A stretch of 50,990 nt of DNA, the filler included, from Catajapyx aquilonaris (lineage: Eukaryota): NCBI GenBank assembly GCA_000934665.2. It is 2 parts of 2 records of this genome, joined end to end, with 100 filler letters (N's around TTAATTAATTAA, not from the genome) between each part and the next. Parts side by side here need not be neighbours in the genome. Positions count along the whole stretch, not along the records: positions 25,548 to 50,990 come from JYFJ02005363.1; 1 more part is not named here. The stretch is one strand, 5' to 3'. Each line of letters opens with the position of its first letter. Within the stretch, counting starts at the first letter, position 1. Below are positions 33,367 to 38,367 of the stretch, one piece after another. Under the pieces are notes generated by a model, which did no database searches, had not been told where the DNA came from, and saw only the letters and a list, made by a program, of their open reading frames with translations. Made by a program: the position numbers and the translations under genes.

Positions 33367-36300
33367 ATGGACTACGAGTTCAAGCTCCGAACGGCCTCGG
33401 AGCGGGCCAAGGTGGAGGACCTGTTCGACTACGAAGGATGCAAAGTCGGAAGAGGAACGTACGGGCACGTCTACAAAGCCAGGAGGAAAGACGGGTATTA
33501 ATTAATTAACTAATTAAAAATAATAATTAACTGGTTGTTGCCATATGACAACCATGATTGGGCATCTGGACAAACAAACAAACACACTTTTTTGCATTTT
33601 AAAAAAATATATGTAACAATGTAATTGTTTTAATTGACAGGACGGACACCAAGGACTATGCATTGAAGCAAATAGAAGGGACTGGATTGTCAATGTCGGC
33701 GTGCAGAGAAATCGCGGTGAGTACGGCGCACTTCGGTTGATCGTAGTCGACGCTGACATTTCCGTTGCAGTTGCTGCGGGAGTTGAAGCATCCCAACGTG
33801 ATCAACCTGCAGCGTGTCTTTCTGTCGCATAATGACCGGAAGGTGTGGCTGCTCTTTGATTACGCTGAGCATGACCTCTGGGTAAGGCGGTGTCCGATTG
33901 CGGTGTAACGATGCTGACCCCCCTAAATAAATTCACAGCACATCATCAAGTTTCATCGTGCGGCTAAGGCGAACAAGAAGCCTGTGATGGTGCCAAAGGG
34001 CATGGTGAAGTCGCTCCTGTACCAAATTCTGGATGGTATTCATTACCTGCACTCCAACTGGGTGCTCCATCGGGATCTGAAGCCCGCCAATATTCTGGTG
34101 ATGGGCGAGGGTCCAGAGCGAGGAAGGGTGAAGATCGCTGACATGGGCTTTGCCAGGCTGTTCAATTCGCCTTTGAAGCCCTTGGCTGACCTGGACCCCG
34201 TTGTGGTCACCTTCTGGTACAGGGCTCCGGAGCTGCTGCTCGGAGCCAGGCATTACACCAAGGCCATCGGTATGTCGATGAAATAATGACGACTTCAGAC
34301 ACATATGAACACTGCTGTTCTTTCCAGACATTTGGGCCATCGGCTGCATCTTTGCGGAGCTGCTGACCTCCGAGCCCATATTCCACTGCCGTCAGGAGGA
34401 TATCAAGACCTCCAACCCATACCATCACGATCAACTGGACAGGTACTGAGCGCTTGAACCTGCAATTGCGTCTGGTAATTCAGGACCTTTTTTTTAAAGG
34501 ATATTCAACGTGATGGGCTTCCCGCAGGAGAAGGACTGGGAGGACATCCGGAAGATGCCGGAGCACACTACCTTACTTAAGGACTTCAAACGATCAAAGT
34601 GAGCGAATGTTCGTTCCGTTAAGGTTCGGTTGCTGACAAGTTCTGAATTTTTTTTGCAGTTACTCTAATTGCTCGCTGGTTAAGTACATGGACCGGCACA
34701 AGATTAAGCCAGACAGCAAGGCATTCCATTTGGTAAGTACAATCCAGCACCAATGAAGTTCACCTGGCATTGAAATTACCAGCATGTCTGTAGAGAATGA
34801 ATAATGGCAACACACTATTGGCAATGAACAGATAATCCTCACCCAGATAATTTGGAATACAGTGTAATTAGTACTTGCCACAATGATATTCAGGTGATTA
34901 TAGTGCTAAGCAAGTTGGCAAGTACGGTATAAACAAGTAATTATACAGGGTGGTCGGTAAATGGCACTGAAGCTTCAGGTAGCAAGATTCCGTAGTGAAA
35001 AACCAGTATAAGGCTCTCCGATGCCTGGTTAGGGCTCACGAGGCCATAGGTCAAAATAATTGGGATGAGCCTTGCCCTCAATCGAGCCTATCGGTTCCAA
35101 GACAACATTCATCATGATTGCATGACGCACGTAAATGGTTACAAAGCGTTGCCAAGAGACGACTAAAGCCAACCATTTGTTGCAAAAGGAATCAAGAGGG
35201 GTAGTCTCTTGTTTCAACTGTTTCCGTATTTCATCTAAATAAAACAGTAAGTATAGTTTGAATTATACAGAAACACACGCTTGCAATCGGTCACAATCTA
35301 ATTACTCCTCTCATTGCACTAAGTGCAATCAGTGACATTGTTGAAACCGGTTTCCTGCGTAGGTGAATAATGGCAAAGGACAGTTCCGTAAAATTCTACT
35401 CCTCAGGTCATACATTCAAGTGTGAAGGCTTGGAGTCTCGATTTACGCTTCAAGAAACTTCAACTACTTTTGCCTTTAATTAAAATACAACCATGCCACG
35501 ACCAATCAGTGACGCATTTCCTTCTCTGGAACAACTCGCCCTCGAGTCCTTCGTCCAGCTGGTGTTCAGATGTTGCCAGACACAACCGAAGGAACACAGT
35601 AGGAAGATCAAAGCTCTTTGCAGCTCCATCCCTGTCACCCTGGCTGAAGACTACATGGAGGAGCTCATCTCTTATGGTCCGGAGTGGTCTGGAGTCAACA
35701 TCCGCAACGCCATGTGTCCCTGGTGTACCCACCTCACCCTCAGGTTTACCAAAACAGACCTGGAGGTGGCCAGAAACCTGGACGTGCTGAAGCACCTCGC
35801 CTGCTTGACGGTGACGACTGACGGAATCTACACCGATATCAGTCCACACGACATGATTAAGGAGGTGGTCAGGCACCTGCCCAGACTCCACAGGCTAAAG
35901 TGTCTCCAAATGGAAGCAGGGAAGGTGACGGACAACATGAACCTCATTGAGAAGGTGGTGAAGGACTGCCCTTTTTTGGAAGAGCTGTCGTTCGAGTGGG
36001 GGATGTCCCCCAATCAGCCGATGACGCTGGAGAGCTGCCAGAAATTGCAGCGAGTGTGTGTCTACTATGGCGGTGAGTCTGTGGAAGACGTGCTGGCCAT
36101 CCTGCTGACAGTCCCTCAGCTGGACACATTGAATATCCTGCATGATAGTCTGGCAAAGTCATTGCTCAAAGCTTGCCGTGGACCGTATCGCCTTTGGAGA
36201 CTGCAGGTCTTTGAGGATGAAGTGACTGTAAATGACGTGGCGTCTCTGGCCTGTCACTTCCCGGAACTGCAGGGGGTAAGGCTGACCAGGTGCGACGACC

Positions 36301-38367
36301 TTTCACCAATCAACAGCATGCTACACGTGAAGGAACTGGCCTTGAGCGAATGCACCTCGGAGCAAGTATTGGTAGTGGATAGCGCCTTGCTCTCTCGTCT
36401 TGTGAGCCTCCGTCTCACTCGTGTTCCAGACCTGCAGAAGGTGCTTGAAGTAATCAGCGGCCCATTGCAAGGCATGGAAAAGTTGGAGCTGCATGTATGC
36501 GAACAGGTCGACCTGGTGCAGATCAACAACCTGTTCCCCAATTTGAGCTGTCTTGACCTGTTCTACTGCCAGTTTACCAGCCTCACGAGAAACGAAGGCA
36601 AACCTTTCGTGCATCTGGAGAAGCTTACGATCACGGATGATGAGGAGGATGCTTTGAGTCCACACCATCTGGCCTACCTGCTGTCTCACGCCTGTGATCT
36701 GGAGGTTCTGATGATAATCCAGAGCTGCGGCCTGGATGACTCCACTGTCCACTACCTCCTTCAGCGCAACCCAATGATCAAACTGAGAGAATTATGTTTA
36801 TACAGCAACCGCTTTACCCCATCTGTCACATCAGTGATCTTCGACTACTTTGGGAAACACCTGGAGTCCGCACATTTTGTAGGTGATCTGATGGAGGACT
36901 TACCAAACGGTTTCATTAATACGATGAAGGAGAAGGTGAAGCCGTACATCTTGGAGATGACGATTGGGGACGTGGTATTCACATGCCTAGCAGGCACATG
37001 CACCTTATCGAGTGTATGGGACTAGTTTTGAATATGTGATAAGGCAATGTATTTTCAGAATGACGGAATTCATTGATTAAAATAAAAAGCGAAATAAACA
37101 TGTGTTCTTTGCGTAATGTCTTCATATTTTGAAACTTCGGATATGGGAAGGAATACTGTATTATTCTCGGAAAGAGTTGATGAAAATGGTGATTAATTTT
37201 GCCGTGTATGAAGAGCAGCCGTTTTATGAATGGAAACACTTGCGGCCTGGTTGAGCATAACAACCTCGGCCGCTTGATAAAATGGTTGATATAATATTCA
37301 AGTCACATGTTTTGAGTCACCATATAGCAGAAAAACATGCTGTATGCAAAACCACATGACTCAGTCGTAGGATGGGAGCAGAAGTGATAATGCTTATCAA
37401 CATGGTTAAGCCATAGATACTTTGGGAGAGGGTCATGATAATGACGTGCGAACAAATATGTATAAGGCAAAGAGTTAAAATTAATGACCATACATAGTCT
37501 ATAAATATGTTTTTATCTGAATTCACCTAGCTATAACAATAACGTCAATTGTACATGTGCGTGACCAGAATACTATTTTCAGATGTTGCTATTTTAATAG
37601 AGGTTATTAACATTTGATAAGTGCTGCATTTTGAAAACATGTAATTAAATCTGTAATGTCATTTAAAGCTTCAGAAATTGCTGCTTATGGATCCGACTAA
37701 GAGGATAACTTCGGAGCAGGCGATGCAAGACGCCTATTTCCAAGAGGATCCTCTTCCAACAGCCGAGTAAATACAGCTTGTTAACAGTCGACGAAAGCTG
37801 CGTATGCTGACCATCCTTTTCAGTGTATTTGCAGGGTGCACAATCCCATACCCGAAGAGAGAGTTTTTAACGGACGACGACCAGGATGACAAGTCGGACA
37901 CCTCGAAAGTATCGAGGCAGAATCATGCCAATGTAAGTTGCATTATATGCAATACGGTCTAGGTGTCTACATCTCAGTTTTTCCAGACTGGCGGACAAGG
38001 CGACTCGTCCAACCACGGCCCCGGAGCAGCAAAGCGGGTTCGTTTGGGTCCACCTCCGCCGCCACCTCAGGGGCAGAACCAAGGGCAGAACCAGCACCCT
38101 GGAAGCAGCGGCGGACAACAATCAGGCAGTGGTGGAGGTGGCTCCGGACAACAGTCGGCTCAAGGTCCGCCCCAGGGTCAGTCGCAAGGACCACCGCAGA
38201 ACCAGGGTCAGTCTCAAGGGCAACACCAGACCAGCCAGGGGCAAGACTTCCACCACGTGGGGCAGTCCACCCACGGGCCGCCCCATCCGCATATGAACCA
38301 GAACTCCTCGATGATGTACACCAATGCAAATTCATCCCAACAGAACTCATTTTCACAACGGTATTAA
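33367..38367 (+). CDS. CDK8: Cyclin-dependent kinase 8 (Mediator kinase module)
   Basis: Exons 33367-33494, 33641-33716, 33771-33881, 33939-34269, 34328-34442, 34500-34598, 34660-34732, 37669-37766, 37824-37932 and 37987-38367. Motifs [40 protein letters not shown] and PYPKREFL, with a Q/G/P-rich tail. Confidence 0.98.
35493..37025 (+). CDS. Intronless 510-aa leucine-rich-repeat-like protein nested in CDK8 intron 7
   Basis: 1533-nt open frame with repeated LxxLxL motifs ([53 protein letters not shown]). N-terminal [14 protein letters not shown] at 37081 and ~37093. Confidence 0.85.
   Translation: MPRPISDAFPSLEQLALESFVQLVFRCCQTQPKEHSRKIKALCSSIPVTLAEDYMEELISYGPEWSGVNIRNAMCPWCTHLTLRFTKTDLEVARNLDVLKHLACLTVTTDGIYTDISPHDMIKEVVRHLPRLHRLKCLQMEAGKVTDNMNLIEKVVKDCPFLEELSFEWGMSPNQPMTLESCQKLQRVCVYYGGESVEDVLAILLTVPQLDTLNILHDSLAKSLLKACRGPYRLWRLQVFEDEVTVNDVASLACHFPELQGVRLTRCDDLSPINSMLHVKELALSECTSEQVLVVDSALLSRLVSLRLTRVPDLQKVLEVISGPLQGMEKLELHVCEQVDLVQINNLFPNLSCLDLFYCQFTSLTRNEGKPFVHLEKLTITDDEEDALSPHHLAYLLSHACDLEVLMIIQSCGLDDSTVHYLLQRNPMIKLRELCLYSNRFTPSVTSVIFDYFGKHLESAHFVGDLMEDLPNGFINTMKEKVKPYILEMTIGDVVFTCLAGTCTLSSVWD

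Follow-up and report, generated by a model that had tools for sequence, protein, structure and literature searches.

Within the seventh intron of the CDK8 gene of Catajapyx aquilonaris (assembly GCA_000934665.2) lies a second gene, in the same orientation as its host, whose single coding exon specifies a 510-residue protein, P0001. Both genes sit in a 50,990-nt stretch of DNA, referred to here as the window, and specifically in the portion of it, positions 25,548-50,990, that comes from record JYFJ02005363.1. From codon usage and GC content at third codon positions (GC3), the nested open reading frame (ORF) looks like an intact, resident-type gene, and the structural model of its product shows, as the predicted fold, an FBXL-like solenoid of about 15 leucine-rich repeats (LRRs) behind a helical N-terminus of about 75 residues. 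The explanation that we favor, with slightly better than even confidence, is an ordinary host/nested pair in which the nested protein is a substrate receptor for a cullin-RING ubiquitin ligase, most likely via Elongin B/C and Cul2. This explanation is least secure where it links the protein to a ligase and where it selects an adaptor. A resident single-coding-exon gene, placed in sense orientation inside intron 7, would account for the exceptional length of that intron. The locus is an ordinary case of a known class, the same-strand, single-exon, fast-evolving nested gene; such layouts are common in arthropods, and nothing about this one suggests a new mechanism.

Three arthropod CDK8 proteins (P0008, P0007, and P0012), used as tblastn queries, matched the plus strand in colinear pieces at 33316/33367-33495, 33636-34274, 34327-34623, 34658-34744, and 37663/37669-38046. 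The exon model places the CDK8 coding region at 33367-38367, with 10 coding exons and an open product of 506 aa: exons 1 through 5 at 33367-33494, 33641-33716, 33771-33881, 33939-34269, and 34328-34442; exon 6 at 34500-34598; exon 7 at 34660-34732, ending in KAFHL with the donor TTG/GTAAGT; exon 8 at 37669-37766, with the acceptor TTTAAAG/CTT and also supported by tblastn; and exons 9 and 10 at 37824-37932 and 37987-38367. All 9 introns are GT-AG, with lengths of 146, 54, 57, 58, 57, 61, 2936, 57, and 54 nt. The identity of the host is supported by a 94-aa exon translation, which matches CDK8 from spiders, a mite, a scorpion, crickets, and termites at 99-100% identity, and by the whole product, whose identity to the 12 best among 120 CDK8 relatives fetched is 81-89% across 406-457 alignment columns. 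Intron 7 (34733-37668, plus strand; 2,936 nt, phase 0) therefore stands apart from the other eight, at 54-146 nt, and the boundaries given for it in an earlier note on this DNA, which had described it as a 2.9-kb intron among short ones, proved exact. The junction KAFHL/LQKLL aligns gap-free with the orthologue P0006, where it falls at residues 317/318. Since the Pfam kinase domain of P0006 spans residues 26-341, the intron does split the kinase domain, as had also been claimed, and does so 24 residues ahead of its end. Rfam, searched over 32500-39500 at E≤0.1, gave no match.

Several observations concern CDK8 and its immediate surroundings in their own right. An 832-aa CDK8-like database protein, P0002, was considered as a possible CDK8-LRR fusion and ruled out: this public “CDK8” prediction consists of two CDK8 copies joined via a glutamine-rich stretch, and reflects, in another organism, a CDK8 gene duplicated in tandem or else two predictions fused into one. 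Downstream, an NDUFB4-like ORF on the minus strand (38727-39077) converges on CDK8 and begins about 360 nt past the CDK8 stop codon (38365-38367), so the 3′ ends of these genes are tightly packed. Two ORFs of 139-153 aa that overlie the last CDK8 exon, 37947-38408 on the plus strand and 37967-38386 on the minus strand, are off-frame and antisense artefacts of its G/Q/P-rich, GC-rich tail, and not extra genes.

The nested ORF (35493-37025, plus strand) falls wholly inside intron 7, the host exons being colinear with orthologues, and its ATG has an in-frame TAA 4 codons to the 5′ side. Its length is far beyond chance: shuffling the intron 1,000 times never gave an ORF of more than 198 codons, versus 510 in the real sequence, and 1,000 shuffles of the composition of the nested ORF itself yielded at most 239 codons. 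Its GC content is 0.523, versus 0.405 and 0.337 in the non-coding intron sequence on its two sides, and GC at codon positions 1, 2, and 3 is 0.55, 0.35, and 0.67, versus 0.57, 0.39, and 0.68 in CDK8. Scored with a codon model trained on six other known genes of the window, it gives a log-likelihood of +0.245 bit per codon in frame, while the two remaining sense frames give −0.30 and −0.22; the training genes themselves, scored leave-one-out, range from +0.08 to +0.41, and the intron flanks from −0.34 to −0.60. The description of this ORF in the earlier note as an intact, same-strand frame of 510 aa thus stands, with codon usage and GC3 like those of the neighboring genes.

How such a gene came to be in the intron is addressed by a set of largely negative results. 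In intron 7 we found no flanking or terminal repeats of at least 14 nt, no tandem repeats, no A-tract, and no target-site duplication, and the window contains no second copy of this intron; tblastn for paralogues of the nested ORF in the window found only the ORF itself. From the perspective of the usual retrogene criteria, an intronless coding region is present and an A-tract and flanking repeat are absent, though an old retrocopy would have lost these. The retroposed origin that had been suggested for the gene was accordingly not borne out, the intronless ORF being the one feature in its favor, with no poly(A) tract, target-site duplication, or terminal repeats to accompany it. Outside the window, the exact sequence of P0001 is absent from a collection of 15 billion proteins. 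Word-indexed homologue searches, run with the single protein and with a 3-row profile, returned none at E≤0.001; these blanks are weak, since the profile run missed even the members of the profile. Exhaustive phmmer comparison with 1.84 billion representatives gave 4 matches. Two are generic LRR proteins, and the other two, P0125, an uncharacterized 473-aa protein of Periplaneta americana, and P0123, an unnamed protein of 437 aa, are colinear with P0001 over most of their length at 22-24% identity, which points to an old family. By these sequence comparisons the family is thin and fast-evolving.

These same data bear on the possibility of a recent retrocopy or duplicate, an ORF that is not functional or no longer so and is intact only through its youth. 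An intronless coding region is what such a copy would have, and its close relatives were not found in public protein sets; against this, the intron shows neither a poly(A) tract nor a target-site duplication or flanking repeats, codon-position GC and codon usage fit resident genes, and the colinear identity to P0125 and P0123 is that expected of an old family rather than a recent copy. We regard a young copy as improbable, and continue with the interpretation of a resident gene.

The nested gene comes with sequence signals of its own, as the earlier note had proposed. ATTAAA at 37076 and AATAAA at 37093, the second with a T/G-rich stretch just to its 3′ side (37076-37098, plus strand), lie 51 and 68 nt past the stop codon; this is likely where the nested transcript is polyadenylated, at a sense-strand site inside a CDK8 intron. 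On the 5′ side, splice consensus marks a candidate leader intron of 116 nt (35247-35362, plus strand; ACA/GTAAGT...TGCGTAG), of a size in the local range. The splice signals that had been pointed out for it are there, with the donor GT at 35247-35248 and the acceptor ending at 35362, and the intron is still a candidate. A leader containing 35363-35492 would put an upstream ORF (uORF) of 37 codons ahead of the nested ATG, which counts against the favored explanation. The uORF (35370-35483, plus strand) shares the frame of the main ORF and stops 9 nt short of the main ATG, and it falls in the leader only if the leader starts 5′ of 35370. A transcription start site (TSS) nearer the nested ATG is at least as likely as use of the leader intron. 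A TSS near the TATAAA at 34928 was set aside, as the resulting leader, roughly 400 nt long, would contain several ATGs, judged by eye. On the favored explanation, the nested gene would be transcribed from its own promoter, putatively within about 130 nt 5′ of the ATG, and its transcript would end at the AATAAA at 37093, with a predicted 3′ end near 37110. The CDK8 pre-mRNA would read through these signals, and the whole unit would be spliced out with intron 7.

A different view of the same signals is that the two genes are coupled. The nested unit might be reached from the CDK8 promoter, by splicing of exon 7 to 35363 or by read-through, or the poly(A) site near 37093 might end some CDK8 transcripts early, giving CDK8 without the last 24 residues of the kinase domain and the tail, such that the activity of the nested gene sets CDK8 output. 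The sense AATAAA with its T/G-rich element within a host intron and the good acceptor at 35362 are compatible with this, and the parts of PMC11694760 on which we draw link mammalian nested genes to premature host polyadenylation. However, exon 7 spliced to 35363 runs into a stop 20 codons on, and unspliced reading from exon 7 into intron 7 does so after 7 codons, so that no CDK8-LRR fusion protein arises, just as the earlier note had worked out for the spliced case. Moreover, the LRR ORF would then be a second cistron behind about 330 codons, and isoforms of this sort would probably lack activity or be subject to decay. Coupling of this kind, including the early-end route that the earlier note had raised, is unsupported and seems unlikely to us, and the preferred arrangement remains an independent nested unit removed with its intron.

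The fold of P0001 was modeled with AlphaFold2. Without an alignment the prediction was unusable (mean predicted local distance difference test [pLDDT] 41), and with a 5-row alignment the mean pLDDT was 68.7 and the predicted template modeling score 0.63. Residues 80-437 mostly have pLDDT 80-93 and form 15 parallel strands alternating with helices; the final 70 residues are disordered. The model, a listing of the repeats, and the fold matches together delimit an LRR region at codons 77-457 (35721-36863, plus strand), with about 15 irregular repeats of 20-33 residues. Sequence-based evidence is in line with this. A PDB sequence search with P0001 gave weak LRR matches only (E of at least 0.04), and a 3-row profile of colinear sequences matched the LRR domain of LRRC8D at 4e-07 and TIR1 at 6.6e-07. 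Language-model neighbors of P0001 are clusters of uncharacterized arthropod LRR proteins (0.97), F-box/LRR-15-like proteins (0.94-0.96), and Zer-1-like LRR proteins (0.91). Foldseek matched the model to D3/MAX2, TIR1, COI1, FBXL2, FBXL17, KDM2A, NLRPs, and internalins, with E down to 2e-08 and TM-scores of 0.3-0.5. When VIA-align was run against 48,161 representative chains, FBXL2 ranked first (Z 21.0, root-mean-square deviation [rmsd] 5.7, 352 aligned residues), followed by FBXL17 (18.8), RipG4 (18.1), SDS22 (16.8), and the yeast Rad7-Elc1 complex (16.7), and re-scoring of the Foldseek matches returned the same top two (FBXL2, 21.0; FBXL17, 18.9). Because these stand 2-3 Z units above generic LRRs, the repeat domain is, on the model, closest to FBXL-type receptors. 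PRAME, ZYG11B, ZER1, LRR1, and LRRC58 chains were not among the Foldseek and VIA-align matches listed, and are not thereby excluded. The LRR fold, which the earlier note had left to be checked by AlphaFold and Foldseek, was thus recovered as a solenoid by both, and also by the PDB profile matches.

The N-terminal helices bear on the case for a ubiquitin-ligase receptor. We took the patterns for the BC-box and the Cul2-box from PMC4878042, PMC13342108, and PMC13061254, each a source used in part. According to the portions concerned, the BC-box reads (S,T,P)LXXX(C,S,A)XXX-phi (PMC4878042, PMC13342108); BC-box and Cul2-box together make up the VHL box, which is N-terminal in PRAME and ZYG-11 and also occurs in LRR-1 (PMC4878042, PMC13061254); PRAME, ZYG-11, and LRR-1, all of them LRR or LRR-containing proteins, carry a VHL box (PMC4878042); and InterPro, in the account given in PMC13061254, has no model for the BC-box-Cul2-box combination. 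In P0001, regular-expression searches give a BC-box match at codons 11-20 (S11-F20; 35523-35552, plus strand), at the start of the modeled helix 12-30, and a Cul2-box match at codons 46-54, IPVTLAEDY (I46-Y54; 35628-35654, plus strand), at the loop or start of the third modeled helix. SOCS and VHL boxes have this same layout, with one motif at the beginning of helix 1 and the other at the loop or start of helix 3. The pair occurs at the N-terminus in 171 of 20,000 composition-preserving shuffles (0.86%), anywhere in 1,217 of the 20,000, and at the N-terminus of none of 120 CDK8 control proteins. In the corresponding aligned columns the cockroach protein P0125 has LEILALEAV and IPPRLVNEI. Language-model neighbors of the N-terminus, a Zer-1-like LRR cluster at 0.88 and a PRAME_C cluster at 0.82, are below the 0.9 level and serve as leads only. 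From these features, the nested protein would be a substrate receptor of a cullin-RING ligase whose LRR arc, as modeled, would hold the target, and whose N-terminal helices would dock an adaptor, most likely Elongin B/C-Cul2 through the putative BC-box at 11-20 and Cul2-box at 46-54.

Several observations weigh against this interpretation. With regard to the fold, Pfam detects only sub-threshold LRRs in P0001 (LRR_At5g56370 at 22.9 bits versus a cut-off of 27, plus LRR_4 and LRR_1), and the four phmmer matches have E values of 1.5e-05 to 2.9e-04, none below 1e-10. Two of the five rows in the alignment given to AlphaFold2 are generic LRR proteins, which tilts the model toward an LRR fold; the same fold is backed by the independent PDB profile matches. 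The three helices on which the adaptor assignment depends, 12-30, 32-44, and 48-59, are modeled with pLDDT values near 50. Both motifs are short, degenerate patterns, with an extra BC-box match in P0001 at 223 and further Cul2-box matches at 1 and 470. P0125 has R at the first BC-box position, not S/T/P, and the N-terminal local alignment to P0125, with a score of 31, is equalled in 351 of 5,000 shuffles. The top structural matches are Skp1-binding F-box proteins; the phi-P-x-x-phi stretch of IPVTLAEDY resembles the start of an F-box; and one FBXL2 alignment, starting from residue 36 of the model and residue 9 of the chain, runs over the F-box of FBXL2 itself. Finally, a Pfam search of residues 1-110 at E≤10 matches no family at all, F-box and SOCS-box included.

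It is possible, if clearly less probable than the reading set out first, that P0001 is a real LRR protein in which the BC-box and Cul2-box match arose by chance, the protein being either an FBXL-like receptor with a degenerate F-box, in a Skp1-cullin-F-box (SCF) ligase, or an LRR scaffold with no ligase role. The rank of FBXL2 and FBXL17 as best folds, 2-3 Z units over generic LRRs, speaks for this, as do the degeneracy of motifs that recur within the protein and the weak N-terminal conservation. The N-terminal stretch of P0001 also has a hydrophobic spacing that we take to be that of the first F-box helix. On the other side, no Pfam F-box appears in residues 1-110 or, at E≤1, in the whole protein, where a very degenerate F-box could escape, as the HMMER filters drop most matches above about 0.1; the conserved F-box end, with its tryptophan, is not evident in P0125; and the N-terminal motif pair is found in just 0.86% of shuffles. 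As to adaptor genes in the window itself, Pfam found neither Skp1 nor Elongin C in 144 of the 165 stop-to-stop ORFs of at least 75 aa, a scan that left out 21 ORFs between 31949 and 38413, inside the zinc-finger gene (see below), CDK8, and the nested gene. Nor did Pfam, PDB sequence, or profile searches yield homology of P0001 to PRAME, ZYG-11, ZER-1, or LRR-1.

Taken by its parts, then, the assignment of P0001 as a cullin-RING receptor is evenly balanced. That it works through Elongin BC is less likely than not, and that it works through Skp1 is rather unlikely. The BC-box/LRR reading is best called plausible but unproven, because 171 of 20,000 shuffles produce the motif pair and a cockroach homologue retains only part of it. 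The suggestion of the earlier note that this is a BC-box/LRR adaptor therefore holds in part: residues 11-20 do fit the BC-box pattern, and a match to the Cul2-box pattern at 46-54 can now be added to it, but the best folds are FBXL2 and FBXL17, and not PRAME or ZYG11, the families it had in mind.

Among known receptors, P0001 is like FBXL2 (6o60_C) and FBXL17 (6w66_B) in its repeat fold, in a similar overall size, and in having a short helical N-terminal module before the LRR arc; unlike them, it has no Pfam-detectable F-box, and identity in the structural alignments is 15-17%. Yeast Rad7, bound to Elc1 (5zb2_A), is a third point of reference, as an LRR solenoid that docks Elongin C (Elc1) and matches model residues 132-494 with Z 16.7, rmsd 5.2, and 318 aligned residues. 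The Rad7 match covers the repeats only, leaving the docking part unaligned, and it ties with many generic LRRs. PRAME, at about 500 aa, is near P0001 in length, and P0001 differs from ZYG-11 in that it has no armadillo repeats. The resemblance to the PRAME family, ZYG-11/ZER-1, and LRR-1, receptors of the Cul2-based cullin-RING ligase (CRL2) as treated in the portions of PMC4878042 and PMC13061254 used here, is one of order, with an N-terminal BC-box, a Cul2-box, and then LRRs, the two boxes being read in P0001 from pattern matches.

As a nested gene, P0001 has close parallels in Drosophila. In the parts of the D. melanogaster survey by Lee and Chang (2013; PMC3814207) on which we rely, opposite-strand genes make up 71.27% of all nested genes, which leaves about 29% on the same strand. 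The statement in the earlier note that nested genes are more often antisense is correct to that extent, and the rarity it implied for a sense arrangement is weaker than it suggested. The same parts of that survey report that 72.53% of same-strand nested genes are single-exon and 58.46% testis-biased, and that nested genes evolve faster. The C. aquilonaris gene resembles the same-strand genes of that survey, within the limits of the parts consulted, in its strand, its single coding exon, and its rapid divergence, and in being contained entirely within a single intron of a host gene that is conserved and widely required. It differs from them in that its host intron interrupts a kinase domain and, in a species with very short introns, is made about 50 times longer than its neighbors by the nested gene alone.

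The practical lesson from this locus is that a same-strand nested gene is a trap for gene prediction, in which it may be fused to CDK8, dropped, or allowed to split CDK8 in two. If the VHL-box reading is true, it would argue for Elongin BC-type LRR receptors in arthropods beyond ZYG-11/ZER-1 and LRR-1, and this would be of moderate interest for the ubiquitin field. A more far-reaching version, in which P0001 represents an undescribed, fast-evolving arthropod family of PRAME/ZYG-11-like receptors, with an N-terminal VHL box and FBXL-like LRRs working through Elongin BC-Cul2, and in which there is in addition a trade-off with full-length CDK8 through intronic polyadenylation, strikes us as very improbable.

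The rest of the window is gene-dense, in the manner of arthropod genomes. Pfam matches on its ORFs include GAS8-like, Derlin, RAMA plus MPN, La/LARP7-like, and WD40, and further matches are to sulfakinin, CLCA, C2H2 zinc finger, NDUFB4, and cathepsin L. At 6205-7874, on the minus strand, adjoining ORF pieces with RAMA and MPN/JAB domains make up an MPND-like gene. The ORF at 21865-22218, on the plus strand, contains a sulfakinin-family motif (Pfam PF08257, E 2.8e-06) and is probably an exon of a neuropeptide precursor. Finally, within the C2H2 zinc-finger ORF at 31575-32465 (minus strand; 296 aa), a block of about 90 aa made up of finger-like units plus linker is present in two nearly identical tandem copies, suggestive of a very recent intragenic duplication.

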